Shown in pieces: positions 9,208-31,859 of a stretch of 64,000 nucleotides of DNA. The notes below the pieces were generated by a model. The model was not told the DNA's origin, made no database searches, and saw only the letters and a program-made list of their open reading frames with translations. The translations under genes were made by a program, and so were the position numbers. Source of the stretch: a virus; IMG/VR virus record IMGVR_UViG_3300032294_002823. One strand, written 5' to 3'. How positions within the stretch are numbered: the stretch's first letter is position 1; each line of letters starts with the position of its first letter.

Positions 9208-9420
9208 ATGCGTACTTGTGCTCGATGCAAATCCATGATTCCACAATCTCGGTTAGACATTCTGCCTGACACACAAACATGTGTGGGATGTTCGGGTGTT
9301 CAGAAATATGTAGGCGCCATGGTGTATGACCACAAGACGGCAGGACGATTGGAATTTGTCCGCCCAGAAAACACACAAGCAGTACAAACTTTAATTCGTT
9401 TTGTTAACCGAGGACGATAA
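9208..9420 (+). CDS. DksA/TraR C4-type zinc-finger protein
   Basis: CARC..IPQSRLDILPDTQTCVGC. Confidence 0.8.
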   Translation: MRTCARCKSMIPQSRLDILPDTQTCVGCSGVQKYVGAMVYDHKTAGRLEFVRPENTQAVQTLIRFVNRGR

Positions 9421-9740
9421 TGAATATTCACGTAACTGATAACGCTATCACAGAACTCCGTGCCAACAAGGAGCATGATGTGCAACATTATCGCATGGGT
9501 GTGATGCCCGGCGGATGTTCAGGATTTAAGTATACACTCATGTTGGAAGATGTTGCTGCCGATGATGATGTGCTCATTGATGCCGCCGCCGATGTGAAAA
9601 TCATTGTTGATCCTTTCTCAGCACAATATCTTGAAGGTGCTGAATTGGATTATGTCAAGACATTGACGGAATCCGGATTTACATTTAAAAATCCCAACGC
9701 CACAGGCGGATGCGGATGTGGGTCAAGTTTCTCGGCATAA
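9420..9740 (+). CDS. iscA: A-type Fe-S cluster carrier (HesB/IscA family)
   Basis: GGCSG and GCGCGSSF motifs. Confidence 0.92.
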   Translation: MNIHVTDNAITELRANKEHDVQHYRMGVMPGGCSGFKYTLMLEDVAADDDVLIDAAADVKIIVDPFSAQYLEGAELDYVKTLTESGFTFKNPNATGGCGCGSSFSA

Positions 9741-13337: not shown

Positions 13338-13355
13338 TTGCACTAAGGAGAAATA

Positions 13356-13448
13356 ATGCCACATCCACACAAGAACCGTCCACGTAAAGGACGGCGAAAG
13401 GTTGGTAGCAAAAAGCGTCGAGCACGCAATATTCGTAGAAAGAGATAA
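13356..13448 (+). CDS. 30-aa Arg/Lys-rich peptide MPHPHKNRPRKGRRKVGSKKRRARNIRRKR (not in ORF track)
   Basis: TAAGGAG SD, ATG 13356, TAA 13446-13448. Confidence 0.7.
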   Translation: MPHPHKNRPRKGRRKVGSKKRRARNIRRKR

Positions 13449-13564
13449 TGGCGAATAAATATATCGCTGAAGTTTGGCGTAAGATAAAGAATAAGAAAAC
13501 AGGAACCGTGAAGAAGGTTCGCGTGAAACCACATCTTCGAAAACCAAAAAAGACAAAAAGTTAA
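13448..13564 (+). CDS. 38-aa Lys-rich peptide (not in ORF track)
   Basis: TAATG coupling; MANKYIAEVWRKIKNKKTGTVKKVRVKPHLRKPKKTKS. Confidence 0.55.
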   Translation: MANKYIAEVWRKIKNKKTGTVKKVRVKPHLRKPKKTKS

Positions 13565-13569
13565 CGCTA

Positions 13570-14136
13570 ATGAATCTCATTCAACCACTTAACGGAAACA
13601 TCGGAGTCTTATTATCAGGTGGTATGGATAGTGCAGTAATGTTATATCTTATAGCAAAGGAAGCTCCGTCATGTATTCAACCTTTTACGGTTGCCAAGCA
13701 TGACGGAGCTTCCATGTATGTTCAACCCATAGTAAACTGGATTTCTAAAAGATTGCATGTTTCAATAAACGATCCTATTATTATTGGAAATCCAAATTTA
13801 CCTCATGATGAAATTATAGGGGATGTTTTGAATCGTGTTATTCGACATAATTTAGCTGATGTTTTTTATGTCGGTGACAACATCTACCCTAAAAATGAAT
13901 TACCAGGTGGTCCTAATAGAGTAAAATATCATGATAGTAAGGTTATATATCCACTATTTCATTTAACCAAAATAGATATAGTTCAGTTATATTTGACGCA
14001 CAATCTAATGGATTTATTACCACTCACACATACATGTACTGAACAAAAACTTGGGCGATGTAACGTTTGTTGGCAATGCAAAGAGCGCGCTTGGGCATTT
14101 AAACGCTGTGGACTGGAAGACTTGACAACTACATAA
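13570..14136 (+). CDS. QueC-like PP-loop ATPase
   Basis: SGGMDS; THTC...CNVCWQCKER. Confidence 0.75.
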   Translation: MNLIQPLNGNIGVLLSGGMDSAVMLYLIAKEAPSCIQPFTVAKHDGASMYVQPIVNWISKRLHVSINDPIIIGNPNLPHDEIIGDVLNRVIRHNLADVFYVGDNIYPKNELPGGPNRVKYHDSKVIYPLFHLTKIDIVQLYLTHNLMDLLPLTHTCTEQKLGRCNVCWQCKERAWAFKRCGLEDLTTT

Positions 14137-14150
14137 TAGGATGTTATATT
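14122..14150 (+). promoter_or_regulatory. sigma70-type promoter for uvsE cluster
   Basis: TTGACA-17-TATATT with TGn extension. Confidence 0.75.
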
Positions 14151-14177
14151 ACAATATGACTCTAATCGTGAGGTGTT

Positions 14178-15086
14178 ATGCCACATCAGGTAGGTTACTG
14201 TTGCATCAATGTCACACTAGGTAAGCAAAAAATCACCACTGGGCGGACGATGCGCCAGGCCTCATTCCAACAGGATACAGGTTTGGTTCGCACGTCCGCT
14301 TTAGCCTTACAGAATGCCAAGGACTTGGTGACTATCTTGAATTGGAATGTTGCAAATAACATTAAGGTGTTTCGTATTGGCAGTAACATCTTCCCATGGA
14401 ATTCAGAATATGTGATTGATGATTTACCTGACATGGTTGACATTGTAGATGTCATGAAGGATGCCGGTAAAATTATTCGTGACAGCGGTCAACGTGTCTC
14501 ATTTCATCCTGACCATTTTGTCAAACTCGGTACTGTGAAGGATGAGGTGGCTCGGCGTTCCATTCATGACTTGAATCATCACAATGATTTGATGACCATG
14601 ATGCAATTACCTGCCAATCATTATTATCCACTAAATATTCATGTCGGGATGAATTACAGTAAGGATGTTATTGACCGATTCATTGACCGATTCCATATGC
14701 TCAAGGAAGATACACAAAAGCGATTGGTTGTGGAGAACGATGACAAGGCGAATGCCTTCTCGGTTAAGCAATTGTATGATGACATTTATTCACAAATCAA
14801 TACACCCATCACCTTTGACTATTTTCATCATACCTTTCATCCTGATGGTATGACAAGTCATGGTGCCGCGCATTTGGCATCAACCACGTGGGATTGTACA
14901 CCGCTGTTTCACTACAGCGAAAGTAAAAATCTCAATGAGAATGTACAGGGCAATCCTCGTGCCCATTCTGATTATGCATTCAACTTCATTGATGATTATG
15001 GACTAAATATTGACATAGACCTTGAGACCAAGGCGAAAGAACTTGCACTGATGAAATATCGGGAGATACAACATGAAATGGTATAG
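14178..15086 (+). CDS. uvsE: UV DNA damage endonuclease
   Basis: GYCCIN, SFHPDHF, NIHVG, VENDDK, FDYFHH, HYSES, AHSDY, ETKAKE. Confidence 0.92.
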   Translation: MPHQVGYCCINVTLGKQKITTGRTMRQASFQQDTGLVRTSALALQNAKDLVTILNWNVANNIKVFRIGSNIFPWNSEYVIDDLPDMVDIVDVMKDAGKIIRDSGQRVSFHPDHFVKLGTVKDEVARRSIHDLNHHNDLMTMMQLPANHYYPLNIHVGMNYSKDVIDRFIDRFHMLKEDTQKRLVVENDDKANAFSVKQLYDDIYSQINTPITFDYFHHTFHPDGMTSHGAAHLASTTWDCTPLFHYSESKNLNENVQGNPRAHSDYAFNFIDDYGLNIDIDLETKAKELALMKYREIQHEMV

Positions 15087-16020: not shown

Positions 16021-17031
16021 ATGGTCAAGTTGGATTTTGATGATGTCTTAATTGTACCACAATTTTCTGACATTACATCACGTAGTCAGGTAGATGTGAC
16101 TACAACAATCCAAGGCAGGTGGGGCACATCCATCACGGGTGTCCCCATCATTGCTGCCAATATGGATGGTGTCGGTACATTTAGTATGCATCGTGCATTA
16201 AAGAAGTTCGATATGTTTACTGCCATCACAAAACATCACATGTTAGATGATTGGATGGTGCAAGAAGATATCTCCCATGCCTTCTTAACAATTGGTATGA
16301 GTGATGATGACCTGTGTAAGGCGGTAGATGTGTCACAATATATGCGCAACAAGGGACTGAAGCCGAAAATTGTCATTGATGTGGCGAATGGTTACATGAA
16401 CACCTTCTATGATTTCGTTTCGCGTGTGCGCGAGAGCATACCTGACGCCTTCATCATGGCAGGAACCGTAGTTACACCTGAGGCAGTTGAGCGTGTGATC
16501 CTGTCAGGCGCAGATTTAGCGCGGGTGGGCATTGGAACCGGTGCTGTATGTACTACACGGCGTGTTGCGGGTGTGGGTTATCCGCAATTTTCTGCTCTCA
16601 TGGAGTGTGTTCCTGCTGCTGAAGGCGTAGGAGGCGGTGTTCAGAGCGACGGCGGGTGTGTTTTTCCTGGTGATTTCTCAAAAGCACTAGCCGTGGGAGC
16701 ACAAATGGTGATGGCAGGCAGTATTTTTGCCGGTCATGATGAGTCTGAACAAGAAATCCGTGATGGAAAAGTGACTTTTTACGGCATGAGTAGCCATGCA
16801 GCTCAAAAAAAGCACAATCAAGTGAAAAATTACCGTGCTTCCGAAGGGCGGGTCGTACAAATCCCGTACAAGGGACTGGTGGAACACACTGTTATTGATA
16901 TTTTGGGTGGAATTCGTTCAACGTGTGCCTATATTGACGCGATAAATATCTCAGAAATGCCTGAAAAGGCACAATTCATCCAAGTAAACAATGTCCTTAA
17001 CCGCTCTTTAGAGCAATACACGGTGCGATGA
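16021..17031 (+). CDS. guaC: GMP reductase
   Basis: KLDFDDVLI, AANMDGVGT, IDVANGY, GIGTGAVCTTR, FYGMSS, YRASEG. Confidence 0.92.
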   Translation: MVKLDFDDVLIVPQFSDITSRSQVDVTTTIQGRWGTSITGVPIIAANMDGVGTFSMHRALKKFDMFTAITKHHMLDDWMVQEDISHAFLTIGMSDDDLCKAVDVSQYMRNKGLKPKIVIDVANGYMNTFYDFVSRVRESIPDAFIMAGTVVTPEAVERVILSGADLARVGIGTGAVCTTRRVAGVGYPQFSALMECVPAAEGVGGGVQSDGGCVFPGDFSKALAVGAQMVMAGSIFAGHDESEQEIRDGKVTFYGMSSHAAQKKHNQVKNYRASEGRVVQIPYKGLVEHTVIDILGGIRSTCAYIDAINISEMPEKAQFIQVNNVLNRSLEQYTVR

Positions 17032-17141
17032 TGAAAATTATAGATAAAATTGTTGATTGGCTCATAGAAAAACTTTATAACTACAAATTAAAGCGAAGAA
17101 TGGAAGATATTCGAAAGAAAGATCCTTTCATTTATCCATAA
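17028..17141 (+). CDS. Small protein ending KKDPFIYP (not in ORF track)
   Basis: ATGA overlap with guaC; 37 aa open frame. Confidence 0.55.
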   Translation: MMKIIDKIVDWLIEKLYNYKLKRRMEDIRKKDPFIYP

Positions 17142-17144
17142 GTT

Positions 17145-17744
17145 ATGAAAAATTTGATTTCACATCATCGTGTAATAGATTGGATGAATATTATCCGAGA
17201 AACACCTGATAATTATCGTATTCTAGAAAATTTCTGGGCAAGTCAACTGAATAGTAAGGCTTGGCTCGTTAATATATTGAATGCATATACAGATATACCA
17301 CCTGGCACTGTGTATATTTTTGGTGGATGGTATGGAATACTAGCACAAATGATTGTTGACAATTTTCAAGAGGTGAATGTCATCTCCATTGACAAGGATC
17401 CTGAGTGTGCTAGTCTAGGATCAAGATTATGTAACTATGATAGTAGAATTACATTTGTGTGCGATGACATGCAAACGTTTTCATCCTATGAGAAAACATC
17501 CTTGGTCATAAATACGTCTACTGAACATGTTACACAAGAAATTTTTAATGATTGGTTAAATAAAATCCCTGAATGTAGTTTAGTTGCTTTACAAGGCAAC
17601 AATTATTTTTCATGTCTAGAGCATGTTCGGTGTTTTTCTACACTACAAGAATTCACATCACATAATCCTCTTTCACGCACACTATTTTCAGGAAACTTAG
17701 ATTGTATACAGTTCACCCGATATATGAGTTTAGGATATAAATGA
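17145..17744 (+). CDS. Class I SAM-dependent methyltransferase
   Basis: YIFGGWYG, SIDKD, INTSTEH. Confidence 0.8.
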   Translation: MKNLISHHRVIDWMNIIRETPDNYRILENFWASQLNSKAWLVNILNAYTDIPPGTVYIFGGWYGILAQMIVDNFQEVNVISIDKDPECASLGSRLCNYDSRITFVCDDMQTFSSYEKTSLVINTSTEHVTQEIFNDWLNKIPECSLVALQGNNYFSCLEHVRCFSTLQEFTSHNPLSRTLFSGNLDCIQFTRYMSLGYK

Positions 17745-18721
17745 CCAACAAAGAATATAGAAAGTATGTACATGATATGTACATGAATAATTTTGTACGC
17801 CAAGGAAAAAAACCTAAAGCGTTACAAATATTTGGTGATAGTTTTGGGCATTTTAGTGGTGATGATACTTGGATAGGAGTGTTAGCAAAAAAATTTGACA
17901 TCCCTGTATTCAACTATGCATGGGCTGGCAGTAATTTATCTTTTACTCTGAGTCAATTTTATAAAAATTATGACAAAGAATGTTTAAATATTTTTTTAGT
18001 AACCGGAGAAGGACGAATTTCTGCAAAATCTGACCTTTTAAAGTCAGGAGAGTATTTAACAAAACAATTTATTCCTGATATATTTGCATGTGGTGCTGCA
18101 GGTGACGCAACTGACCATATTGTTCAGTTTGTAAATCATGCAAACTTACTTCCTGATAACATTAAGAAAGAATATAAAGATGCCATAGGTGGTTATTTTA
18201 AAATGTTATATGATCCTGTAATCGAGGCAATGATTTGGCGTCCAGTTCTAGAAAATTTATTTGTGCATTACGATAACACAGTATTTTTAAACTGTTTTAA
18301 TACTTTGAAGATACAGGAATATATAGGAAACGTTAGAAAAGAATTTCGTATTCCTAATTTATTAGAATGCGATTTATTTCAATTATCAACTGCTAAATCA
18401 TATTTTGAAGTTCCTACATCTAACACGTTGATTGCATTATCTGAAATATCATGCTCCTTTGACCGAGTTCATCAGGCTAAATGGAACAATATGAAAAATC
18501 ATTTTTCTGCAAAAATGAATAGTTTAATTGGTGAGCAATTGTACGCAATTTTCATATCCAATGAAAAAATTTTCATTACATATGATGATTGTTGTGATTT
18601 GTCTGAAAATGATTTACTTACAGATGGTATACCATGGCGCAACGAAGCTAACTTGCGTTTAAAAATTGCAAAAGATTACAACAACCCTAATATGAAAAAC
18701 GTTTTACCGGTGGGGCTATAA
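17741..18721 (+). CDS. SGNH/GDSL hydrolase-like protein
   Basis: IFGDSF, NYAWAGS, NHF. Confidence 0.65.
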   Translation: MTNKEYRKYVHDMYMNNFVRQGKKPKALQIFGDSFGHFSGDDTWIGVLAKKFDIPVFNYAWAGSNLSFTLSQFYKNYDKECLNIFLVTGEGRISAKSDLLKSGEYLTKQFIPDIFACGAAGDATDHIVQFVNHANLLPDNIKKEYKDAIGGYFKMLYDPVIEAMIWRPVLENLFVHYDNTVFLNCFNTLKIQEYIGNVRKEFRIPNLLECDLFQLSTAKSYFEVPTSNTLIALSEISCSFDRVHQAKWNNMKNHFSAKMNSLIGEQLYAIFISNEKIFITYDDCCDLSENDLLTDGIPWRNEANLRLKIAKDYNNPNMKNVLPVGL

Positions 18722-19884
18722 TGAAAAATTTTTGCGCTGAACCTTGGAAGCAGTTGTTTATTGGTCCGGATAGTAAGGTTAAGACCTGCTGTTCAGGAAG
18801 AGATCCTATAGGAGACCTTCAAGAGAATAATTTATCAGAAATTATTCAAGGTGAAAAGCTTAGAGAAATAAAACTGTCCATTTTAGAGGATAAACAACAT
18901 TCTAATTGTGGACTTTGTTATGAACTAGAAGCTAATGGAGCCTTCACTGCATCTCAAAGAAATAGAACAAAGGATGACTATCTTACCAACTTAGATTTCT
19001 ATAAAAATAACATTGATTATCATACCCCGGAAATTTTAGATATCAGATGGGATAATACATGTAATTTGGCATGTAATTATTGTATGCCATATTTTAGTTC
19101 AGTGTGGGCTTCAATTAAAAAGGAAACTCAGGTTGCTCCTAGAACAAATGATGGGGTATTAGAATATGCCATATCAAAGAAGGATGAAATACAGAGCTTG
19201 TATCTTTTAGGAGGAGAACCTTTCTTACAAAAAAGAAATCTTTCGCTATTAGAAAATATATCCGAAAAAATTCATCCTGTAGTTGTAACAAATTTAAGTG
19301 TTCCTCTAGGTACAAATAAAATATATGAAGTGTTATCATCTAAATTTAAAAGAGTGTCTTTTAATCTAAGTTTTGATACTATCGGTGATAGATTTGAATA
19401 CGTTAGACATGGTGCCTCATGGTCTGTATTTCTTGATAACTTAGAAATTATTAAAAAAGATTTTAACGAACATCCCATGGCGCGCCCTTTATATTGTATC
19501 TACTCTGCATTCAATATTGAAGAATATTACGATTTTTGTGTAGCGAATGATTTAACAATTCTTTGGCAAAAAATGGAGCATCCCAGAGAACTTAACGTAA
19601 ATTTATTGCCCGCAGAATTGAAACAAAAAGCCATACAAGAGATTGACAATGTAGTAAAGAAATTTAGTAAATATGATAAGAATATAAATTGTGGTCACTT
19701 ACAACATTTAGACCTCGATAATCTAAAAAGTATAGGTGATAGCTTGAAAGAAAATACAACACATAATGCACATGATGTGTTGGAATATCACAAAACTTTA
19801 GAAAACGTTTATCATAATAAAAAACATACATTACAAGATTTGTGGCCTGAAGTTTACAATGAACTAATAAAATATACGGTATGA
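18721..19884 (+). CDS. Radical SAM protein with N-terminal Twitch/SPASM-like Cys domain
   Basis: CAEPW..TCC..CGLC; CNLACNYC; GGEPF. Confidence 0.9.
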   Translation: MKNFCAEPWKQLFIGPDSKVKTCCSGRDPIGDLQENNLSEIIQGEKLREIKLSILEDKQHSNCGLCYELEANGAFTASQRNRTKDDYLTNLDFYKNNIDYHTPEILDIRWDNTCNLACNYCMPYFSSVWASIKKETQVAPRTNDGVLEYAISKKDEIQSLYLLGGEPFLQKRNLSLLENISEKIHPVVVTNLSVPLGTNKIYEVLSSKFKRVSFNLSFDTIGDRFEYVRHGASWSVFLDNLEIIKKDFNEHPMARPLYCIYSAFNIEEYYDFCVANDLTILWQKMEHPRELNVNLLPAELKQKAIQEIDNVVKKFSKYDKNINCGHLQHLDLDNLKSIGDSLKENTTHNAHDVLEYHKTLENVYHNKKHTLQDLWPEVYNELIKYTV

Positions 19885-21401
19885 CATCTGAATATGGTGA
19901 CCGCGCTCAGTTAATGCGCGAAAAATTAAATAGTACTAGCCCGTCATTATGCTTGGCAAAATGGCTTCAAGTAAGTCTACATTTACCACAGGGAAGAACG
20001 CAAAGTTGCTATCATCCCCCAACACATTCCATTCCAGTAGAACTGTTAAAAAAGAATCCCGGTACACTTCATAATACACCCACGAAAATTGCTGAACGTG
20101 AACAAATGATGAACGGTGAGCGTCCAGAAGGATGCTCATATTGTTGGAAAATTGAGGATGCAAAAAGTGATGATCCCAAGGGGCATATGAGTGACCGCCA
20201 CTATCGTAGTAGTGAATGGTGGGCAGCACCCGCCTTTGACGAAATTGTTGCTGATGGCAGTAAATGGTCAGGTGCGCCGCGATATGTTGAGGTAAATTTC
20301 AATCAAGCGTGTAATTTTAAATGTATGTATTGTAGTCCACATCTGAGTACCACATGGCAAGAGGACATTGAAACTCATGGACCGTTTACATTACATGACC
20401 ATGTACACAATGACATCTCAGCCTTGGAACAAAATGGCATGATGCCTTTAAAAATTTCTTCTAAAGAAAATCCTTATGTGCAGGCATTCTGGGAATGGTG
20501 GCCTGAGATATACAGAAAGTTGCGTGTTTTCCGTATGACTGGCGGCGAACCTTTAATGGATAAAAACACTTTCAAAATTCTTGATTATGTGAATGAAAAT
20601 CCTCATGGTCAACTTGAGCTAAGTATCACTAGTAATTTTTGCCCCCCTGACCAAAAATTATTCGAAACATTTTTAGATAAGGTAAAGAAGTTAGAAGAAA
20701 TTCGTGTGTGGGATGATCCCGAGAATTTCAATGAAAATTCAGGAAATTATGCCTACGTTGCCCCCGCCTACAAACACTTCATGCTATTCATTAGCCTTGA
20801 TGGTGTAGGGGAGCAGGCAGAATACATGCGCGATGGATTAAATTATGAAAGATTACTTGAAAATGTTCGCACATTCCTTCGTGAAACTCATCATACAAGT
20901 GTTAGTTTTATAAACACGTTTAATCTACTTAGTATTCCTAGCCTTCAAAAATTCATGGAGCTAATATTAGAGCTTCGAAAAGAATTTGGAGGAAAAAATC
21001 AAAAACGTATATTGTTTACTCCTCCCCCATCGCATAATATAATTCATCCTCCATATGAATTGAAAAAATTTCAGAGAGTGTGGTTTGATATTCCTTTGTT
21101 ACGCTATCCCAATTGGTTCAGTGTTCAAAATGCTCAACCAAAGGAACTTGAAGAAGTAAAGAAGGTGTTGGCGTTTATGGAAGAACATGTTCAAGATGAA
21201 AATTATGCCGATACCTTCGAAGGATTTAAGCCTTATGAAATCCTTAAATTGAAACGTGATATTGCTGTGATGGAAGAGGGGCTAAATAGTTTTCAGATAG
21301 ACTTGAATCGTAAAAATTTACAAAAGTTTATTGTACAATATGATGCTCGTAGAAACAAATCTTTCATCAATACATTCCCAACGCTGGTCGAATATGTCTG
21401 A
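19881..21401 (+). CDS. Radical SAM protein with N-terminal Cys domain
   Basis: CLAKW, CSYCW; CNFKCMYC; TGGEP. Confidence 0.9.
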   Translation: MTSEYGDRAQLMREKLNSTSPSLCLAKWLQVSLHLPQGRTQSCYHPPTHSIPVELLKKNPGTLHNTPTKIAEREQMMNGERPEGCSYCWKIEDAKSDDPKGHMSDRHYRSSEWWAAPAFDEIVADGSKWSGAPRYVEVNFNQACNFKCMYCSPHLSTTWQEDIETHGPFTLHDHVHNDISALEQNGMMPLKISSKENPYVQAFWEWWPEIYRKLRVFRMTGGEPLMDKNTFKILDYVNENPHGQLELSITSNFCPPDQKLFETFLDKVKKLEEIRVWDDPENFNENSGNYAYVAPAYKHFMLFISLDGVGEQAEYMRDGLNYERLLENVRTFLRETHHTSVSFINTFNLLSIPSLQKFMELILELRKEFGGKNQKRILFTPPPSHNIIHPPYELKKFQRVWFDIPLLRYPNWFSVQNAQPKELEEVKKVLAFMEEHVQDENYADTFEGFKPYEILKLKRDIAVMEEGLNSFQIDLNRKNLQKFIVQYDARRNKSFINTFPTLVEYV

Positions 21402-22281
21402 AAAATTTCTTTATTTTACCGGGGATAGTTTCACGGCAGGATCAGAACTTGCTGATGATTATTTTGTAGAATGGCCTGGATTACTAGACTATGAAGACCG
21501 TATGTATAGAAATCCAGAAAATATTGAAAAATGGTTAAAAAGTGTATCTAATTTAGTAGACTGTTTACCTGAGGACGAATTTAAAAAATTTGATGCCATA
21601 GAAAAACAAAGAGTCTGGGCTAATATTGTATCCCGTGAATTGGGCGTAAAGCATTTCAATGGAGCATCAGGTGGTTCTTCCTTAGAGGCCATGTTACATA
21701 GAAGTGTAATTCATTTCAAAGAACTAGAAAAACAGAATATTTTTCCTTCTCTTGCTGTTGTGCAACTAACGGATGTATTTCGAATTGGTGGGTTCTATGA
21801 CACCATAAATATGTCAAGAAGATTTCGCGGTAGTTTCAGAAATAAGTTCGACGTATCGTATATGCTAAATACTTTTGCTGTTAATATGAAAGCGGCTCAA
21901 TTTTATATAGGATCTGAAGGTAATTTTGGTATATGGATACGTTATCTTAACACATTATCGTTGATTAATAATTTCTTTTTAGCTAAAACAGGAAAACTTC
22001 CTATTTTTGTTGATGTATACTTACAAACTATGCGAGGGGAAGAACTTAACGAGCTAATAAAGAATGCAGGTGATAATAAAGATTTTCAAAATCTTTTAGA
22101 GGAATCAAGGATTTTGACGCTTCAGGACACAGAGTTAGATATGTCAAAATTCCAACGAGAGTTAAACAAAAACGAAGAAAATCATAAATTGAAATTGTGG
22201 TCACCTGGAGGGCATTTCAGTCCTCTGTTTAATGAAATGTTTGGTATACATGCAGCTAAAATTATTGGAGAACATCTATGA
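21394..22281 (+). CDS. SGNH/GDSL hydrolase-like protein
   Basis: FTGDSFTAG, NGASGGSS, GGHF. Confidence 0.7.
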   Translation: MSEKFLYFTGDSFTAGSELADDYFVEWPGLLDYEDRMYRNPENIEKWLKSVSNLVDCLPEDEFKKFDAIEKQRVWANIVSRELGVKHFNGASGGSSLEAMLHRSVIHFKELEKQNIFPSLAVVQLTDVFRIGGFYDTINMSRRFRGSFRNKFDVSYMLNTFAVNMKAAQFYIGSEGNFGIWIRYLNTLSLINNFFLAKTGKLPIFVDVYLQTMRGEELNELIKNAGDNKDFQNLLEESRILTLQDTELDMSKFQRELNKNEENHKLKLWSPGGHFSPLFNEMFGIHAAKIIGEHL

Positions 22282-23696
22282 GTAGAGTTGAATTTATTAA
22301 AAAAACCCGTGATAAGTTAAATGCCGTAAGTCCTAGCCTATGTGCGATGAAATGGTTGCACGAAACCTTGTACTTGCATACAGGTGATAATCATAGCTGT
22401 TATCATCCTCGTCCGCAGCATATCCCTCTACATGAGATTGAGGCTAATCCTGCCGCCCTCCATAACACCCAGTGGAAAAAAGAACGTCGAAAAGAAATGT
22501 TATCGGGTGTGCGTCCAGAAGAATGTTACTATTGTTGGAATGTAGAAAATCTCGGTCCTGATTATATCAGTGATAGAATGATTCATAGCTCTAGCGATTT
22601 CGCCGAACCTTTGATTGAAAAATTAGGACAAACACCATGGGACGCTGATGTCAATCCGCGTTATCTTGAATTGAGCTTCGGTAATGCCTGTAATTTTAAG
22701 TGTGGCTATTGCTGCCCACAGGCATCTACTTCATGGATGGATGAAATTAAAAAACATGGCAATTATGATTTGACATATAATCAATATGGTGTTGAGTTTT
22801 TACAAAGACAGCTCCCTGATGGTCATGGCAAAAGTTATTATTCACCACGCGAAGAAAATCCATATGTAGACGCATTTTGGAAATGGTGGCCGAGTTTGCG
22901 TAAGGACCTACACACACTTCGGTTGACAGGTGGAGAACCTTTGATGAATCCTCCCACCTATCGCTTTTTAGATATTCTTGACCAAGAACCCTCACCGGGA
23001 TTAAATTTGTCTATGAATTCTAACATGGGTATTAGTTTTGAAAAATTTGATACAGCCATTGACAAAATACGTAAGTTGCTGGATGAAAAGAAAATCAAGA
23101 GTTTCACCCTATTCACTTCAATAGATAGTTGGGGACCAAAGGCAGAATATATGCGCGGAGGACTAGACTGTGCGCATTGGGAACGCAATCTACGATATTA
23201 TCTGCACATGTTCCCACACGCCACAATCAATTTCATGTGTACATTCAATGTATTATGTGTCACTAACTTCCAGTTGTTGTTTGAAAAAATCATTGAGTGG
23301 AGAAAAGAATTTGGTGCAGGTAGAATTTCTTTTGACACGCCATACTTGAAAGAACCTCCACATTGGATGATTAACATTCTTCCTGAATCCTTTCATAAGT
23401 ATATGGATGATAACATGAAGTTCTTACAAGATAATCAAGAGTGGTTCACTGATGTTGAAATTGAAAAGTGGAAGCGCGTTACCGACTACATGAAAACACC
23501 ATTAAATACATCTGCACATCCTCACTTAACCGATGATTTGATTCGTCGTGGTCGCCGGGATTTCTGGGTGTTCTTTAATGAATATGATGCTCGTCGTGGA
23601 TTAAATTTCGATGAAACATTCCCCGAGTACGTAGAATTTAAAAATTTCTGTAAAACAATTTACGAAGAATACGAAAATGATAAACGAGCACAATAA
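22278..23696 (+). CDS. Radical SAM protein (paralog of 19881..21401)
   Basis: CAMKW, CYYCW; CNFKCGYC; TGGEP. Confidence 0.9.
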   Translation: MSRVEFIKKTRDKLNAVSPSLCAMKWLHETLYLHTGDNHSCYHPRPQHIPLHEIEANPAALHNTQWKKERRKEMLSGVRPEECYYCWNVENLGPDYISDRMIHSSSDFAEPLIEKLGQTPWDADVNPRYLELSFGNACNFKCGYCCPQASTSWMDEIKKHGNYDLTYNQYGVEFLQRQLPDGHGKSYYSPREENPYVDAFWKWWPSLRKDLHTLRLTGGEPLMNPPTYRFLDILDQEPSPGLNLSMNSNMGISFEKFDTAIDKIRKLLDEKKIKSFTLFTSIDSWGPKAEYMRGGLDCAHWERNLRYYLHMFPHATINFMCTFNVLCVTNFQLLFEKIIEWRKEFGAGRISFDTPYLKEPPHWMINILPESFHKYMDDNMKFLQDNQEWFTDVEIEKWKRVTDYMKTPLNTSAHPHLTDDLIRRGRRDFWVFFNEYDARRGLNFDETFPEYVEFKNFCKTIYEEYENDKRAQ

Positions 23697-24906
23697 GAAC
23701 ACCTGGTGTGTTAATGCTGAACATAGTTTAAGTGTTGGCAATGATGGCGGCGCAAAAATTTGCTGTATGATTGAACATGACTTAACTAACGAGGGTGTTC
23801 CTTTTAACGTAGCAAAAAATTCGTTGGATGAAATTTTTAATTGCTCGACCGCATCTAAAATACGAACAAGCCTTCGTGAAGGCATTCGTCATGAACAATG
23901 CAGAAAGTGTTGGGAGGAAGAAGATGCAGGGAGAAGTAGTAAAAGATTGCGTGATAATCAAGATTCGTATAGAAAATTTAACGGATCCGGATTAAAAATA
24001 TTGGAAATGAATCTAGGAACAACATGCAACATTAAATGTAGAACATGTAGTCCCTGGAGTAGTAGTCAATGGATTCGTGAATGGTATGAACAGAAAGTAA
24101 AGGCAAGCGGTAAATCTTGGGAAGTATATTTAAAGGAACAAACAAAATTTGGAAGTTCATATGACGCAGAATCATTATTTTGGGATAGTGTGCATACTGT
24201 TCTACCAAATTTAGAACTAATGGATTTTTATGGAGGAGAACCTTTCCTCAGTAAAAAACAGTGGGAATTGATTAAGACAAGTGCAGAGAAGGGATACTCA
24301 AAAAATCAAAAGCTACATTATAATACCAATTGCACAATCTGGCCAGAAGAACATCTTGATTATCTTAATCAATTTAAACTCTTGGACATCGCCTTCAGTA
24401 TTGATGGTGTAGGAGAACGAGGAGAATATGTTCGTTATCCTGCTCAATGGGATGTTGTTCAACAAAATGTAGATAGATGGCTACAATGGGCAGCGAACAA
24501 ACCTAATGTTCAATTAAATGTCTGTTATACAATTAGTCCTCTAAATGTCTATTATATGAACGAAATGATAGAATGGGTAGAACAAAAGAAAAAAGAATAT
24601 GGAGAACATAAATTTGGTCTCTACTTAAATCTTGTTCATTATCCTGTCTATTATAATATACAGTTTATTCCCGATTACTATAAGAAGGCAGTCACAGAAA
24701 AACATAAATCACTGTTAAATACAAATCAGTATCTAGAAGGTATAATACAATTCATGAACAATGGTGTATATAATGAAAATCATTGGAAAGATTTCATTAA
24801 ACATACAAAAATGTCTGATGATTTTAGAAAACAAGATTTTAAAAAGGTGTTCCCTGAGGTATTTTCTATAATGGAGGAAAATGATGTCCTATCAATGGAA
24901 CTATGA
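23677..24906 (+). CDS. Radical SAM protein with N-terminal Twitch/SPASM-like domain
   Basis: ICC, CRKCW; CNIKCRTC; YGGEPF. Confidence 0.9.
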   Translation: MINEHNKNTWCVNAEHSLSVGNDGGAKICCMIEHDLTNEGVPFNVAKNSLDEIFNCSTASKIRTSLREGIRHEQCRKCWEEEDAGRSSKRLRDNQDSYRKFNGSGLKILEMNLGTTCNIKCRTCSPWSSSQWIREWYEQKVKASGKSWEVYLKEQTKFGSSYDAESLFWDSVHTVLPNLELMDFYGGEPFLSKKQWELIKTSAEKGYSKNQKLHYNTNCTIWPEEHLDYLNQFKLLDIAFSIDGVGERGEYVRYPAQWDVVQQNVDRWLQWAANKPNVQLNVCYTISPLNVYYMNEMIEWVEQKKKEYGEHKFGLYLNLVHYPVYYNIQFIPDYYKKAVTEKHKSLLNTNQYLEGIIQFMNNGVYNENHWKDFIKHTKMSDDFRKQDFKKVFPEVFSIMEENDVLSMEL

Positions 24907-26197
24907 TACAATTAATCAAGTACACATAGAACTTTCCACGTACTGTAATGCCGCCTGCCCAATGTGTCCTCGACATGTGGTTGGTCCTGACCAAAGCGCC
25001 CTTCCCATTGTTCGACCTGAATTAGTATTAGAATCCATTACATATGAAAATTTTATAAAATGGTTTCCTGAAGATTTTGCAAAGAAAGTTAACATGTGGG
25101 TATTGTGTGGTACTCATGGTGATCCTATGATGAACAAGGATATTTTAAAAATTGTTCGGTACATTTGCGAAACCGGCGGTTCTATTTGGGCAAATACCAA
25201 TGGCGGTATGCGAGACAAGGAGTTTTGGAAAGAGCTTGCTGAAATTACTCAGATAAACAAAAAACCATATTCAGAAAGATTAGTAATTTTTTCTATGGAT
25301 GGGTTATGGGACACCAATCATTTATATCGTAGAAATGTTCCGTTTGAAAAAGCTGTAGGTAACGCCAAGGCATACATTGACGCCGGGGGCGCTGCATCTT
25401 GGGATTATTTAATCTTTAAGCATAATGAGCATCAAATTGATGAAGCCGAAAAATTATCTAAGGAATTAGGTTTCAGATATTTTGTTCCTAAGAAAGCTTT
25501 AGGATTTGATCCTCCAACCAATAGAACAGATGGGTTGATAGCTAAGACGGTGAGAAACAAAGATGGCAGTTTTGCCTATATGCTAGAACCTCCAACTGAA
25601 GGCATGAACGTTAATCACAATAAGGATCTTGTAAAAATTGAAAAACGTAACCCAGAAAATTTTTGTTTTAACGTAGATGAGTTCATGGAAAATAGGAATA
25701 CAAAAAAAGATTACGAACATTCTAGAAAAAAATATTTGGAAATCTTAGATAGTAATTATGAACCAACGGAAGCAGAAAAATCAACAAATATAGTTTGCAA
25801 GAGTCACGTGGCATGCAAACAAGATTATCAACAGCATGAAATTTATGTGGATGCATATGGTAATGTATTTCCTTGTTGTTATGTTGGTACAAATTTTTCC
25901 GCCAATTTCAATATACCTACTAATTATCAACTAACATCAGAAATTGTGAATTTTGGCTTAGAAAAAATTTCCTTGAAAAACCATTCACTAAAGGAAATTA
26001 TAGAAAGTGGATATTTACAGCACACGTTTGAGGACAAGTGGGGTAAATCCTGGCCTCAAGGTATGTTATTTTGTAATGAGACATGCGGAGAAAAAAGTTT
26101 AATTGATAAAATTTTTACACATGAGAAAGATAATAGACCGGATGAATTTAAAACACATCAGTCTGTTAGTAAGAAACGTATGAGTCAAAATGTTTAA
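24881..26197 (+). CDS. Radical SAM protein with C-terminal SPASM-like domain
   Basis: CNAACPMC; GTHGDP; YVDAYGNVFPCC...CNETC. Confidence 0.9.
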   Translation: MMSYQWNYDTINQVHIELSTYCNAACPMCPRHVVGPDQSALPIVRPELVLESITYENFIKWFPEDFAKKVNMWVLCGTHGDPMMNKDILKIVRYICETGGSIWANTNGGMRDKEFWKELAEITQINKKPYSERLVIFSMDGLWDTNHLYRRNVPFEKAVGNAKAYIDAGGAASWDYLIFKHNEHQIDEAEKLSKELGFRYFVPKKALGFDPPTNRTDGLIAKTVRNKDGSFAYMLEPPTEGMNVNHNKDLVKIEKRNPENFCFNVDEFMENRNTKKDYEHSRKKYLEILDSNYEPTEAEKSTNIVCKSHVACKQDYQQHEIYVDAYGNVFPCCYVGTNFSANFNIPTNYQLTSEIVNFGLEKISLKNHSLKEIIESGYLQHTFEDKWGKSWPQGMLFCNETCGEKSLIDKIFTHEKDNRPDEFKTHQSVSKKRMSQNV

Positions 26198-27080
26198 GAA
26201 TATTAAAAATTTTCCCCCTAAAGATATAGTTGGATATCGTGATATTGCCTGGTCAGAACCTAAGCGATATAAACCCGGTCACGAAGAAGCCGTTAAAAAT
26301 TTACGTACATATGAAGATGGTGATGTATTAGTTGAATATAATGCATTAGGATTTCGCGGACCCGACATCACACAATACCCTGACAAGAAAAAAATTGTGT
26401 GTATTGGATGTTCCATGACGGAAGGTGAAGGCGTAAAATATGAACACACGTGGCCAGCACAATTTCAAGAAAGAATCAAAGAGAAGTTAGATATAGATAT
26501 TCCGGTGTTTAATTTAGGACGAAGAAGTTTAGGTACCGCGTCATTTTTTCGTGTGTTGCTTAGTTTAGTTGAGGGAAGAAAAATTAAACCGGATGTTGTA
26601 ATTGTTCTCTTTCCTGAATTTGAACGCCACGAATTGGTGTATGGGGAATGGGATATATTTTTTCGGACCTTTACGGATTTTGAAGATCCTAATGATATTC
26701 GGAAACGCCTATCACATAAGTGGTTCGAGGCCGTGGATTCTTCAACTGCATTTTATCTATGGCTTCAGCAGTATTTTTTAATTAAATATTTTCTGAAGTC
26801 CCATGGCATCATGACGGTTCTTACCTCATGGTCATCCGAATGTCAGAGTTTTCTGAGAGATTTTGATGATGAATATAACGATAGTGGCTATATAGAATGG
26901 GATGCTAAAGATGTCAGTAATGAATTCTATGGTATAGATATCGCTATAGACCATTTACATCCCGGTCCCAAAGGATATAAATTATTTGTAGACAACTTAG
27001 AAAATACATTGTTCACAAACGAACATTTTTTACGAGCAATAACACATGATAATCTGGGGAATTTCAGCCAACAGCCATGA
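26190..27080 (+). CDS. SGNH/GDSL hydrolase-like protein
   Basis: IGCSMTEG, FNLG, DHLHPG. Confidence 0.75.
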   Translation: MFKNIKNFPPKDIVGYRDIAWSEPKRYKPGHEEAVKNLRTYEDGDVLVEYNALGFRGPDITQYPDKKKIVCIGCSMTEGEGVKYEHTWPAQFQERIKEKLDIDIPVFNLGRRSLGTASFFRVLLSLVEGRKIKPDVVIVLFPEFERHELVYGEWDIFFRTFTDFEDPNDIRKRLSHKWFEAVDSSTAFYLWLQQYFLIKYFLKSHGIMTVLTSWSSECQSFLRDFDDEYNDSGYIEWDAKDVSNEFYGIDIAIDHLHPGPKGYKLFVDNLENTLFTNEHFLRAITHDNLGNFSQQP

Positions 27081-28500
27081 TGCTGCCATCTCTGTGGTCC
27101 AAGATGGCGAAATCTTGTATGCATCACAATCTGAACGATATTCAGGAATAAAAAATGATGCTCATTTAAATCCGGGCATTGTTACAGACGCCAAACGATA
27201 TGGTGAGCCTGATGTTGTTGTGTGGTATGAGAATCCTTGGCTGAAAACGTTACGGCAACTTCGTGCAGGACAAGGATGGATCAATAATAGTATTAGAGGG
27301 TATCTAAACAAATACAACATCACGGCACCCGTCACTACTGTAGGACATCACCATAGTCATGCAGCGGGAGGATATTATACCTCCCCATTTAAAGAAGCGG
27401 CTGTATTAGTAATTGATGCCATCGGTGAGTTTGACACTACAACTATTTGGCATGGCACAGATAACAATCTGACAAAGAAATTCTCTGTTAAGTATCCGCA
27501 TAGTTTAGGGTTGTGGTATTCAGCCATGACCCAACGAATAGGATTAAAACCCAATGAAGAAGAATATATTCTCATGGGCATGGCGGCATATGGGGATCCT
27601 TTGAAGTATACTCCAATGATTTTGGAAGATTTCTTTGATAGCAGAGACATTTTGAAGTTGAATGATAATCTTCATCGAGGATGCATGAACTGGCGTCCTG
27701 AATTGAAATCTCAACAAGACTTGTATGATATTGCCGCGGCAACACAATTTGTCTACGAACTATATTTTCATGATTTAGTAGATAAGGCACAAAAACTCAC
27801 AGGAAGTAAAAACTTAGTGTTGGGTGGCGGGTGTGCCTTGAATTGTGTTGCCAATAATATTGCCTTCCAATATTTTGAGAATGTCTGGATTATGCCAAAT
27901 CCGGGCGATGCGGGGAATAGTCTTGGTGCCATTGCTGCTCATCAACAAGAATTCTTGAACTGGCGAGGTCCCTATCTTGGATTTGATATGGGTGTGAAAT
28001 ATCCCACGGGACAATTGATTGAAACACTACAGAAAGATGGCATTGCAGGTGTGGCATTTGGTCGTGCAGAATTTGGTCCTCGTGCTTTAGGACATAGAAG
28101 TTTATTGGCTGATCCTCGCGGTGATGACATCAAGGATAAGGTGAATGTCATCAAGAAACGACAGAAATTCCGTCCCTTTGCGCCTGCCATTCTTGCCGAA
28201 CATGCCCATGAGTATTTCCACATGCCCACTATGGAAAGTCCCTATATGCAATACACGGCATTGTGCAAACATCCTTTACAATTCCCTGCCATTGTACACG
28301 CAGATGGGACATCTCGCGTACAAACGGTTTCTCAAAAGGATTCACCCTACTTTCATAGTTTTTTACAAGAATGGTACAAAGAAACTGGATGCCCGATGAT
28401 TTTAAATACCAGTTTAAACATTAAAGGTAAACCTATGGTGAACAACCGCATTGATGCTATAGAGTTTTCCAAACGATATTCGGTGCCTGTACATACTTGA
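27046..28500 (+). CDS. Carbamoyltransferase (NodU/CmcH family)
   Basis: SHDAA, HHHSHAA, GGCALNC, GDAG, EFGPRALG, RPFAP, HADGTSRVQT, LNTSLN. Confidence 0.93.
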   Translation: MIIWGISANSHDAAISVVQDGEILYASQSERYSGIKNDAHLNPGIVTDAKRYGEPDVVVWYENPWLKTLRQLRAGQGWINNSIRGYLNKYNITAPVTTVGHHHSHAAGGYYTSPFKEAAVLVIDAIGEFDTTTIWHGTDNNLTKKFSVKYPHSLGLWYSAMTQRIGLKPNEEEYILMGMAAYGDPLKYTPMILEDFFDSRDILKLNDNLHRGCMNWRPELKSQQDLYDIAAATQFVYELYFHDLVDKAQKLTGSKNLVLGGGCALNCVANNIAFQYFENVWIMPNPGDAGNSLGAIAAHQQEFLNWRGPYLGFDMGVKYPTGQLIETLQKDGIAGVAFGRAEFGPRALGHRSLLADPRGDDIKDKVNVIKKRQKFRPFAPAILAEHAHEYFHMPTMESPYMQYTALCKHPLQFPAIVHADGTSRVQTVSQKDSPYFHSFLQEWYKETGCPMILNTSLNIKGKPMVNNRIDAIEFSKRYSVPVHT

Positions 28501-28525
28501 CAAACCACAATGAATGATGTATATT
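28497..28525 (+). promoter_or_regulatory. sigma70-type promoter for DNA ligase
   Basis: TTGACA (contains stop)-17-TATATT. Confidence 0.75.
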
Positions 28526-28558: not shown

Positions 28559-29851
28559 ATGGTGAACCAAATCTTTGAGCAACTTGCCGCGACTACCAGC
28601 CGCCTAGAAAAAGAAGCCATTCTTAAGGAACACCTTGCGGACCTAACACTCCGCAAGGTGTTATTTCTTGCTCTTGATCCATATACACAGTTTTACATTC
28701 GACGCATCATGCCATATAAGACGGGTGTGAGAAACACGCATATCACACTTACACAAGCATTGGATGAATTGGAAAAGTTTTCTTCTCGGACCTTGACGGG
28801 AAATGCAGCATTTCATCATCTTCACTGGATCCTGGAATCTCTTGATGCCGATGATGCCAAGGTGATTGAACGTGTCATTGAAAAAGATTTGAAGTGTGGG
28901 GTGTCTGAGGCTACAGTAAACAAGATTTGGCCTAACTTGATTCCCACATATCCTGTCATGTTGGCATCTGGATTTGATGAGAAAATCATGAATAAAATGA
29001 CCTATCCCGCCTATGTGCAATTGAAGTTGGATGGGATGCGATTCAATGCCATCGTGGAAAATGGTAAAGTGGACTTTCGTTCACGAAACGGTAAGCAAAT
29101 TGATTTGCTTGGAAATCTTGAAGCCGAGTTTCTACAATTGGCAGGTGAACTCCCTGTGGTGTTTGATGGTGAATTGATTGTGAGAGAACGTTCTGGCAAC
29201 ATCATGAACCGTCAGAAAGGTAATGGCATCTTAAACAAGGCGGTAAAGGGTACCATCTCTGAGAACGAAGCCGGTATGGTGGAAGCTGTGGTCTGGGATA
29301 TCATTCCTTTGGGTCATTTCAAGCAAGGTGAGTCCAATTGTTCCTATGAGTCGCGCTTTCAAATTCTTGAAGCAATGGAGATGCCTGAACGTGTTTCACT
29401 GATTGAAAACATTGAAGTCATTTCAGAGGACGAGGCTCATCATTTGTTCGAGGAATATTTCGCCAAGGGAGAGGAAGGTATCATTCTCAAGGACATCACC
29501 AAGGGATGGGAAGATAAGCGCGTAAAGCATCAAGTGAAGTTCAAGGGTGAGTTGGAATGTGACCTTCGTTGTGTGGATTGGCAAGAAGGTACGGGGAAAA
29601 ATGTGGGAAGATTGGGGGCACTGGTACTAGAATCTGCTGACGGCATCATTCAGGTGAATGTTGGGTCAGGATTCACAGATGAACAGCGTGATAAATATAC
29701 AAAGAGTAATACTGTAGGTAAGATTGTTGCCGTCAAGTATAACGCACGTATTTGTGACAAAAAGACCAACGTGGAAAGTCTATTTCTACCGGTTTTTCTT
29801 GAATTACGTGAGGATAAGAGTGTTGCTGATTCGTCAACCATTATTAAATGA
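28559..29851 (+). CDS. gp30: ATP-dependent DNA ligase (gp30)
   Basis: KLDGMR, FDGE, EGIILK, VGSGF, LFLPVF; GAGG SD before ATG 28559. Confidence 0.93.
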   Translation: MVNQIFEQLAATTSRLEKEAILKEHLADLTLRKVLFLALDPYTQFYIRRIMPYKTGVRNTHITLTQALDELEKFSSRTLTGNAAFHHLHWILESLDADDAKVIERVIEKDLKCGVSEATVNKIWPNLIPTYPVMLASGFDEKIMNKMTYPAYVQLKLDGMRFNAIVENGKVDFRSRNGKQIDLLGNLEAEFLQLAGELPVVFDGELIVRERSGNIMNRQKGNGILNKAVKGTISENEAGMVEAVVWDIIPLGHFKQGESNCSYESRFQILEAMEMPERVSLIENIEVISEDEAHHLFEEYFAKGEEGIILKDITKGWEDKRVKHQVKFKGELECDLRCVDWQEGTGKNVGRLGALVLESADGIIQVNVGSGFTDEQRDKYTKSNTVGKIVAVKYNARICDKKTNVESLFLPVFLELREDKSVADSSTIIK

Positions 29852-31181: not shown

Positions 31182-31859
31182 ATGAAAACATTTATACACA
31201 ACCCCGTTGAAATTGAAGAAATCTCAGCCACTACTGGTACTGATGGGAATAGAGTTTATCAAACGCCTGACGGTAAACTCTATCCCTCAGTAACCACAGT
31301 GTTATCTCAGCATACCAAAAAAGGTATCATGGAGTGGAGAGAACGTGTAGGTGCGGATGAAGCCAATAAGATATCTCGGCAAGCCGCCACACGTGGCACC
31401 AAGTTTCATACCCTGGCGGAACGATATCTGAAAAATGCTTCTCAGGAAAAACTGTTCCCAGATAGTTCATTAAAGTCAGTGCTAGACCAAGAACTGTTTG
31501 AGATTGCTAAATCAGAACTGAATAAGATTGACAACATTCGGGCTCAAGAAGTTGCATTATGGTCCCATCACTTACGATTGGCGGGGCGGGTGGATTGCAT
31601 TGCTGAATATGAAGGAAAACTGAGTGTCATTGACTTCAAGACAGCTCGTAGAGAAAAAGATGTGGAGCATATTCAACATTACTTCATGCAGGCGTCCGCG
31701 TATGCTGTGATGTTTGAAGAACGTACAGGCATTCCTGTGAATAGATTGGTGATTGCCATTGCAGTTGAAGATGGATTCATGCAAGTATTTCAAAGTAAAC
31801 GAGATGCTCATATTGAAGGATTATTATACTATCGTGATATGTACGAAGTAATGAAGTGA
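31182..31859 (+). CDS. PD-(D/E)xK exonuclease (T4-like phage exonuclease A type)
   Basis: YPSVTTVL, RGTKFH, AGRVDCI, IDFKT, YFMQ..AY; preceded by TTGACA(31147)-17-TAATTT. Confidence 0.85.
   Translation: MKTFIHNPVEIEEISATTGTDGNRVYQTPDGKLYPSVTTVLSQHTKKGIMEWRERVGADEANKISRQAATRGTKFHTLAERYLKNASQEKLFPDSSLKSVLDQELFEIAKSELNKIDNIRAQEVALWSHHLRLAGRVDCIAEYEGKLSVIDFKTARREKDVEHIQHYFMQASAYAVMFEERTGIPVNRLVIAIAVEDGFMQVFQSKRDAHIEGLLYYRDMYEVMK

Follow-up and report, generated by a model that had tools for sequence, protein, structure and literature searches.

What would a phage make with five radical S-adenosylmethionine (SAM) enzymes encoded in a single run of genes? The question is raised by a locus in IMGVR_UViG_3300032294_002823, a stretch of 64,000 nucleotides of viral DNA (hereafter the window), in which ten open reading frames (ORFs; g01 to g10) occupy 17145-28500 on the + strand, all overlapping or abutting, behind a conserved ORF of 37 amino acids (aa) at 17028..17141 (+); with this small ORF included, the run extends over ~11.5 kb. 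It encodes five radical SAM proteins (g03, g04, g06, g07 and g08), a methyltransferase-like protein (g01), two proteins of the SGNH family (g05 and g09) and a probable third (g02), and an O-carbamoyltransferase (CT; g10). An initial annotation had described ten enzymes in one run, starting with a methyltransferase at 17028; the ten coupled ORFs are there, but position 17028 is the start of the small conserved ORF. It is proposed here, at what we regard as an even chance, that in aquatic T4-like and jumbo phages the cassette serves as a modular pathway for tailoring carbohydrates in the cytoplasm. The radical SAM genes and their occurrence in related loci are considered first, followed by the accessory enzymes, the peptide, and the readings that compete with this proposal.

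The radical SAM enzymes

Four of the radical SAM proteins, namely g03 (18721..19884, +; 387 aa), g04 (19881..21401, +; 506 aa), g06 (22278..23696, +; 472 aa) and g07 (23677..24906, +; 409 aa), are N-terminal-Twitch (N-Twitch) enzymes of the NF033640 (N_Twi_rSAM) family, with whole-protein scores of 227, 295, 316 and 307 bits, respectively, against a curated cut-off of 170 bits, whereas g08 (24881..26197, +; 438 aa), at 37 bits, falls outside the family. With the general Radical_SAM profile (PF04055), g03 reaches 41.2 bits against a gathering threshold of 29.5 and the other four 19.5-29.1, as against the four of five genes that pass NF033640. The CX3CX2C motif is found in all five. In an alignment of 75 sequences, the cysteines of this motif (C117, C121 and C124, g07 numbering) are invariant together with C11, C29, C75 and C78, and the SPASM profile PF13186 matches residues 11-79 of g07, N-terminal to the CX3CX2C core; the corresponding match in g03 covers residues 5-66 (35.5 bits), with CX3CX2C at residue 114. 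The order is reversed in g08, where an N-terminal core (CX3CX2C at residue 22) precedes a Cys-rich C-terminal auxiliary region. Six extra cysteines (C76, C306, C332, C333, C398 and C402), five of them C-terminal, are kept in 99-100% of 84 relatives, and the SPASM score of 18.4 bits is below the cut-off. The initial annotation had recognised this division into four proteins with N-terminal and one with C-terminal auxiliary cysteines, as well as a pair of paralogs among them, and both points are borne out: the auxiliary cysteines of g08 are mainly C-terminal, and the paralogs are g04 and g06, which are 35% identical. Identity is also 35% between g06 and one gene of the Ralstonia jumbo phage RsoM2USA.

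The predicted structure of g07 has a high confidence (predicted local distance difference test, pLDDT, 92). A fold search against the PDB returned generic radical SAM cores only, at template-modelling (TM) scores of 0.3-0.4, and therefore assigns no substrate class to g07. For g08, comparison with PDB sequences gave no significant match. Of two near-identical contigs of a sister phage, one (L080:11232-12578) has an intact ortholog of g08 of 448 aa, and in the other (L081:10120-11466) this ortholog is in two pieces of 95 and 338 aa, owing to a natural break or to faulty assembly.

Occurrence of the cassette in phages and bacteria

The radical SAM arrays are widespread. There are 711 relatives of g07 at E <= 1e-5, a relative is encoded in 172 IMG/VR stretches, and the same arrays are found on large phage contigs of 79-345 kb. 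Viral co-occurrence was counted over 80 IMG/VR loci retrieved by the radical SAM profile, and 76 of them hold at least three N-Twitch radical SAM genes plus a g08-like gene. Genes like g04, g06, g07 and g08 each occur in nearly every locus (78/80 for the g08 family) and form a core, to which accessory genes are added variably: the methyltransferase-like family is present in 15 of the 80 loci and CT in 6-7.

The most frequent accessory genes bring in a carbohydrate theme. One or both of two families, fam3 (GT8-like glycosyltransferase) and fam2 (GT2-like glycosyltransferase), occur in 65/80 viral loci; both are absent from the window. With the fam3 profile, glycogenin (GT8) is found at 1.5e-5, the match extending over the DxD region. 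For fam2, a D-A-D motif was found, and a few relatives carry PF00535, PF13641 or a glycosyltransferase name; the link to GT2 rests on these few annotated relatives, as comparisons of the fam2 profile with the PDB and with fam3 were not significant. A further set of genes accompanies the radical SAM core at L002:1727-7258 and, as equivalents, in 41-68 of 89 loci, encoding fam5 (~300 aa, Gly/Ser/Thr/Asn-rich), fam4 (116 aa) and fam6 (~200 aa), for which no family or structure match was obtained. The fam5 gene lies upstream of many cassettes; its product gave no match to the PDB or to the fibre proteins of this phage, and a role as fibre acceptor is therefore unsupported. A Pfam search with ten unknown neighbours in L002 and L003 gave a weak match to DUF6492 only.

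Outside viruses, the arrays are mainly found in metagenome-assembled genomes (MAGs) of Bdellovibrionota, some with CT and a methyltransferase-like gene. In two of these (L023 and L029), arrays and CT lie among genes for GT2 glycosyltransferases, nucleoside diphosphate (NDP)-sugar epimerases/dehydratases and an AT3 acyltransferase, and other cellular array loci include the NTP_transf_3 nucleotidyltransferase, APH kinase and mannose-phosphate isomerase families. Two Myxococcales MAGs (L012 and L014) show, at 11240-14860, an N-Twitch radical SAM gene followed by a gene for a 1206-aa protein, of which the first 520 residues are a TobZ-like CT and the last ~690 match nothing.

The accessory enzymes

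The SGNH assignment is best founded for g05 and g09, in which the fold, the block I serine and the block V histidine of SGNH/GDSL proteins were looked for and found. The first is a phage-type SGNH hydrolase-fold protein (21394..22281, +; the start at 21394 is likelier than TTG 21331 of the longest ORF, because relatives start at the methionine at 21394). Nearly all of the best PDB matches of its AlphaFold2 model (pLDDT 90) are GDSL/SGNH hydrolases (TesA at TM 0.62-0.64, by target), carbohydrate esterases being among the matches, and among 65 relatives G-D-S is nearly invariant and one histidine is invariant. A hidden Markov model of the g05 family matches every phage cassette locus tested and none of the cellular loci. 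The second, g09 (26190..27080, +; 296 aa), has G-C-S in block I and a D-x-x-H motif, scores 30 bits with PF00657 against a cut-off of 23.6, and is aligned to the g05 family by hhalign with 91% probability. The fast-diverging g02 (17741..18721, +; 326 aa) has a GDS motif near residue 32. Its closest Atlas clusters (TM 0.5-0.6) come exclusively from viruses and in some cases carry DUF6071 or Lipase_GDSL, and the hhalign probability to the g05 family is 25%, which is not significant; as the GDS motif and this DUF6071/GDSL lead are all there is, g02 is called a probable SGNH-like protein. The three SGNH proteins of the initial annotation are thus two, supported by the model of g05 and the PF00657 match of g09, and a probable third. 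No signal peptide was visible by eye in the SGNH proteins, which would fit a cytoplasmic substrate.

The product of g01 (17145..17744, +; 199 aa) is a probable class I SAM-dependent methyltransferase-like Rossmann protein. It scores 18.2 bits with Methyltransf_25 (E 0.004) against a cut-off of 27, and the family profile finds spermidine synthases and methyltransferases in the PDB at E 0.09-0.4, with no significant methyltransferase match. The family conserves a glycine-rich G-G-W-Y-G motif as well as acidic residues. The methyltransferase of the initial annotation is accordingly a weak call, g01 being no more than methyltransferase-like.

The assignment of g10 is secure at the level of the superfamily. 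This 484-aa protein (27046..28500, +) has Kae1-like and YrdC-like domains, with Carbam_trans_N at 142.7 bits (2.5e-41; cut-off 24) and Carbam_trans_C at 174.7 bits (1.5e-51; cut-off 27); its PDB relatives NovN, GdmN and TobZ are found at 1e-41 to 1e-51 and phrog_1601 at 1.5e-103. An H-H-x-S-H motif is invariant in the family, and identity to the RsoM2USA CT is 47%. The substrates of the solved CT relatives are sugar or metabolite hydroxyls. It had been named a NodU-type enzyme; both Carbam_trans domains agree with this, but the score with the NodU equivalog NF041651 is 133 bits for a cut-off of 1000, making g10 a member of the superfamily and not NodU proper.

The conserved peptide and its module

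The operon is headed by the 37-aa ORF at 17028..17141, which is ATGA-coupled to the stop codon of guaC. The peptide has a basic helical N-terminal part and a C-terminal [RK][RK]-x-D-P-[FY]-I-Y followed by 0-2 residues, with D, P and Y invariant. It is 78% identical, and in the same position, in the sister phage (L080/L081), against which its ratio of nonsynonymous to synonymous substitution rates (dN/dS) is 0.27. Further homologs are found in an unannotated gap of RsoM2USA, directly upstream of CT in marine virus AG-345-D19, and in L082; the family comprises 476 metagenome clusters and has no counterpart in Pfam. The finding overturns the statement of the initial annotation that no precursor peptide is visible in the operon, with the proviso that the peptide follows CT and not the radical SAM genes. 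It is present in 6/7 of the loci with CT and 2/73 of those without (Fisher p = 6e-7, for loci that are not independent), and both CT-less loci end near the peptide; the peptide gene usually overlaps the CT start. In L167-L170 the peptide and CT occur together in the absence of any radical SAM gene; g09-like SGNH genes accompany them in loci of this kind, and in L167 they precede both. Because it tracks CT and is also found without radical SAM genes, the peptide is assigned to an SGNH-peptide-CT module and not to the radical SAM core. Two of these loci (L167 and L168) have the g09-type SGNH, peptide and short CT genes beside those for UDP-glucose/GDP-mannose dehydrogenase, DegT aminotransferase and NDP-sugar epimerase. 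Neither the peptide motif nor the pairing of peptide and CT was encountered in the literature search, and the motif is absent from the cyanophage CT loci.

The gap in RsoM2USA (MG752970; L001:14038-14148, between ORF201 and ORF200) contains an unannotated 36-aa ORF with a C-terminal D-P-F-I-Y, surrounded by a mini-cassette of three SGNH-like genes, at least one N-Twitch radical SAM gene and CT, all annotated as hypothetical; the RsoM2USA paper makes no mention of these genes. In a Bdellovibrionales MAG, an N-Twitch radical SAM gene is preceded at ~110 bp by a short frame (L030:9827-9868) that lacks a start codon and ends in R-R-D-P-F-I-Y-stop; this frame may be due to chance or a broken peptide gene.

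Gene integrity and divergence

Gene decay was named by the initial annotation as an observation that would speak against a functional pathway. Decay is not seen, all cassette genes being under purifying selection relative to the sister phage, with dN/dS of 0.02-0.38 (g01 0.09, g04 0.06, g06 0.016), ratios that are rough because dS is mostly saturated. Identity to the L080 orthologs is very uneven, at 95% for g06, 87% for g04, 38% for g02 and 29% for g05, which suggests allele replacement of the accessory genes; such mosaic divergence may be likened to that of variable glycan loci. The window also encodes an A-type Fe-S cluster carrier (9420..9740, +; 106 aa, IscA/ErpA-like), identified by PF01521 (Fe-S_biosyn, 1.1e-19) and its Cys motifs, and a gene for such a carrier is near the cassette in L082 as well. 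It would likely have a support function, helping to load the at least ten clusters of the five radical SAM enzymes. Judged by purifying dN/dS, conserved cluster cysteines and a nearby Fe-S carrier, the cassette enzymes are intact, and the earlier view of an uncharacterised multi-enzyme pathway is upheld, no chemistry being known for the family in the literature searched.

Proposed function and competing explanations

From the observed gene content, conservation, co-occurrence and purifying selection we infer a substrate class, a chemistry for each enzyme and a final target, as follows. The core set of g04, g06, g07 and g08, to which this phage adds g03, would act in successive radical steps on a sugar, likeliest at the nucleotide-sugar or lipid-linked stage, by oxidation, epimerisation, deoxygenation or C-C chemistry, and the output of the core would be an unusual sugar. 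Variable accessory modules would then decorate or transfer it, with GT8-like and GT2-like glycosyltransferases serving this purpose in most phages. The module present here would consist of three SGNH-fold esterase/acyltransferase-like proteins, the methyltransferase-like protein and an O-carbamoyltransferase working with the small peptide. In pelagimyophages, radical SAM cassettes have been reported together with glycosyltransferases in the host-recognition cluster (PMC7029224). The initial annotation had favoured the tailoring of a glycan on virion fibres or on DNA. Its carbohydrate theme is kept, being best supported by the context of related loci, while the proposed target fares less well, as no DNA-modification hallmark gene is found in the window and the cassette has no late promoter. 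A glycan of the host envelope and one of the virion would be about equally plausible as the target, and DNA less so; the host envelope is placed at least level with fibres or DNA because the enzymes are apparently cytoplasmic and the cassette has an early position.

Several observations weigh against carbohydrate tailoring. The 64-kb window yielded neither a glycosyltransferase nor a nucleotide-sugar gene, in agreement with the earlier statement that the operon has no glycosyltransferase, and the genes that would mark a glycan locus are seen in related loci and not here. Cassettes of the CT type are mostly without fam2 and fam3 (a GT8-like gene in 1/6 CT loci), so the strongest context comes from the other cassette type. 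No recurrent set of genes emerges around 21 solitary cellular homologs, and Pfam searches with ten neighbours in L035 returned further radical SAM proteins only. The fold neighbours of g07 are split, at low TM, between enzymes with nucleotide-linked substrates (viperin, BlsE, MoaA and DesII) and peptide maturases (CteB, SkfB and anSME). The literature search gave no NF033640/N-Twitch member with a known reaction. All of the contextual support is guilt by association, and many of the neighbouring genes are without a family. To our knowledge, no radical SAM enzyme works on a polymerised glycan.

The first alternative is that the product is derived from the peptide, similar to a ribosomally synthesised and post-translationally modified peptide (RiPP) or a cofactor: the C-terminal D-P-[FY]-I-Y would be cross-linked or otherwise altered by the radical SAM enzymes, then carbamoylated or methylated, and trimmed. 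Such a route would resemble those to mycofactocin and pyrroloquinoline quinone (PQQ), products that a SPASM radical SAM enzyme builds out of the C-terminal end of a small peptide. SPASM/Twitch enzymes often mature peptides, and in the case of HypF, which is related to the CT family, the residue that becomes carbamoylated is the last one of a protein. This route is in keeping with the presence of CteB, SkfB and anSME among the top fold matches of g07, with the conservation of the ORF and of Asp-Pro and Tyr close to its stop codon across T4-like, jumbo and uncultured marine phages, and with the usual overlap of peptide and CT genes. A RiPP precursor would, however, be expected to co-occur with its maturase radical SAM gene, and the peptide occurs in 8/80 radical SAM loci, being missing from the other 72 and tracking CT instead; peptide and CT also occur where there is no radical SAM gene (L167-L170). 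In addition, no RiPP recognition element (RRE) domain appears among the family-scan matches of the radical SAM proteins, and five to seven such enzymes would be a large number for so short a core (five or six residues). A peptide-derived product is thus considered improbable, if far from fanciful.

The small peptide could also have a role within a carbohydrate pathway. Glycogenin is glucosylated on its own tyrosine, and by analogy the D-P-[FY]-I-Y peptide might be a ribosomal acceptor or primer, of which the invariant tyrosine would be carbamoylated or would bear the sugar made by the radical SAM enzymes, giving a peptide-anchored glycoconjugate or a peptide-derived cofactor. We consider this unlikely; if true, the peptide-anchored product would constitute a new class of phage product, originating from a domain-permuted radical SAM family.

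Hypermodification of DNA or nucleotides, in which the enzymes would build a group on the bases of phage DNA or on deoxynucleoside triphosphate (dNTP) precursors and so allow evasion of host nucleases, would suit the position of the cassette amid early-type genes of nucleotide and DNA metabolism with no late promoter. Viperin, MoaA, QueE and BlsE, which act on nucleotides, are fold neighbours of g07, two QueC-like PP-loop genes lie in the window, and the Kae1/YrdC relatives of CT modify adenine in tRNA. Yet the Pfam matches of the ORFs in the 64-kb window include no base hydroxymethylase, DpdA/TGT, 5-HMUDK-type kinase or DNA glycosyltransferase, and the same radical SAM core is found in bacterial loci of the polysaccharide type and beside GT8/GT2-like genes in most phages. 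The known radical SAM enzyme of thymidine hypermodification reportedly belongs to a pathway of different layout. Modification of DNA is accordingly thought decidedly unlikely.

Twitch radical SAM enzymes of the BtrN type and carbamoyltransferases of the TobZ type both take part in aminoglycoside pathways. A diffusible small molecule (aminoglycoside-like, nucleoside-like or a lipid metabolite) made during infection and acting on the host or on competitors is nevertheless very unlikely: BlsE and DesII are among the fold neighbours of g07 and TobZ among the PDB matches of g10, and phage genes for 'antibiotic synthesis', a radical SAM gene among them, are the subject of speculation in a cyanophage paper (PMC12801897), but no scaffold-forming enzyme such as a cyclitol synthase, non-ribosomal peptide or polyketide synthase (NRPS/PKS) or nucleoside core enzyme is seen in the window or in related loci, and the frequent linkage to glycosyltransferase-like genes suggests transfer onto an acceptor.

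Genomic setting

The window belongs to a distant T4-like aquatic myovirus. It encodes the baseplate proteins gp5, gp6, gp7, gp25 and gp53 as well as gp32, and gp6 is ~35% identical to gp6 of Pelagibacter phage HTVC008M and Methylophilales phage Melnitz, HTVC008M being the closest; no DNA near-identical to the window was found in the phage collection. The cassette is flanked by early-type genes of nucleotide and DNA metabolism (purA-like, guaC, uvdE, DNA ligase, phoH and gp32). The nearest strong sigma-70 consensus match upstream of it is a promoter-like site, TTGACA-17-TATATT with TG, at 14122..14150 (+), upstream of uvdE, and a second site, TTGACA-17-TATATT at 28497..28525 (+), overlaps the CT stop codon at the 3' edge of the cassette; both are consensus matches only, at 11/12 positions. 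Late-promoter sites (TATAAATA) precede the late genes from 30043 on, and none is present on the + strand anywhere upstream of 30043, leaving the cassette without a late promoter. On the basis of this early-type region, the sigma-70-like matches and the lack of TATAAATA, expression of the cassette is probably early.

Downstream, the probable start of the DNA ligase gene is ATG 28559, which follows a GAGGA site, and not 28514. A hairpin at 28629-28662 was rejected as the operon terminator, because it lies inside the ligase coding frame. A permuted transfer-messenger RNA (tmRNA), detected by ARAGORN at 31853-32205 (+), has a tag ending in YALAA, with a TATAAATA site at 31862. The purA-like gene (9760-10782, +) encodes a short adenylosuccinate synthetase-like protein of 340 aa that matches PurA in the PDB at 1e-54 and PurZ at 1e-16 to 1e-24; it was considered as PurZ, the marker of Z-genomes, and this was rejected since it is closer to PurA. 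Other + strand genes encode a P-loop kinase/cytidylyltransferase-like fusion (10755-11552), a Sulfotransfer_2-like protein (12675-13337; E 1.3e-4) and the two short QueC-like PP-loop proteins (13570-14136 and 35012-35554). Positions 1-6000 of the window have a G+C content of 52-56%, against ~38% elsewhere, and long ORFs are scarce there.

Significance

The radical SAM core is a very common uncharacterised enzyme set of aquatic phages, and a single solved cassette would give a chemistry to a large domain-permuted family that is without a known reaction. The answer would reveal how sugars, and with them host surfaces, virions or DNA, are altered during infection by phages that abound in oceans and lakes. 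That phages have such arrays was already published; new are the fixed composition of the core, the SGNH partners specific to phages and the pairing of peptide and CT, none of them occurring in the literature searched, where a search on the enzyme combination gave nothing relevant. The pairing of peptide and CT is a separate and easily testable lead. As RsoM2USA is cultured and has a minimal version of the cassette, bench work is possible.

Comparison with known systems

Radical SAM genes have previously been noted in similar phages. An A-type carrier is paired with radical SAM genes in marine T4-like viral genomes, one T4-like genome having 12 radical SAM genes (PMC5332604). The phages of that study and the pelagimyophages (PMC7029224) share with the present one a similar phage type, the combination of an A-type carrier and multiple radical SAM genes, and a cassette-like presence or absence. 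Both reports describe presence only and are silent on the N-Twitch architecture, on a core of fixed composition, on SGNH partners and on a module of peptide and CT; moreover, the cassette described here is in the early region and not next to tail fibre genes. A further parallel is offered by the lipopolysaccharide (LPS) and nucleotide-sugar gene islands of cyanomyoviruses, among which the T4-like marine phage P-SSM2 has a CT related to g10 that abuts heptose-nucleotide genes in a variable region. The cyanophage CTs are of the long form and have no peptide, and the annotation of three such loci lists no radical SAM or SGNH gene.

Compared with TobZ, NovN, GdmN and NodU, g10 has the same two-domain build of Kae1-like and YrdC-like parts and the same invariant His motif, but is ~90 residues shorter and genetically tied to a small conserved peptide; we know of no characterised enzyme of this type that needs a peptide. 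Another point of reference is the mycofactocin pathway, with the peptide MftA, the SPASM radical SAM enzyme MftC, the glycosyltransferase MftF and a methyltransferase. The likeness lies in a small peptide conserved around a C-terminal Tyr, SPASM-type radical SAM enzymes, and sugar and methyl tailoring in one locus, whereas no sequence relationship was found, the peptide here follows CT, and neither an MftB-like chaperone nor a peptidase was seen. There is affinity also with the NF033640 family itself, of which g03, g04, g06 and g07 share the four N-terminal cysteines and CX3CX2C; what distinguishes the present system within it is that four paralogs and a fifth radical SAM protein with C-terminal cysteines form a fixed set in a phage cassette.

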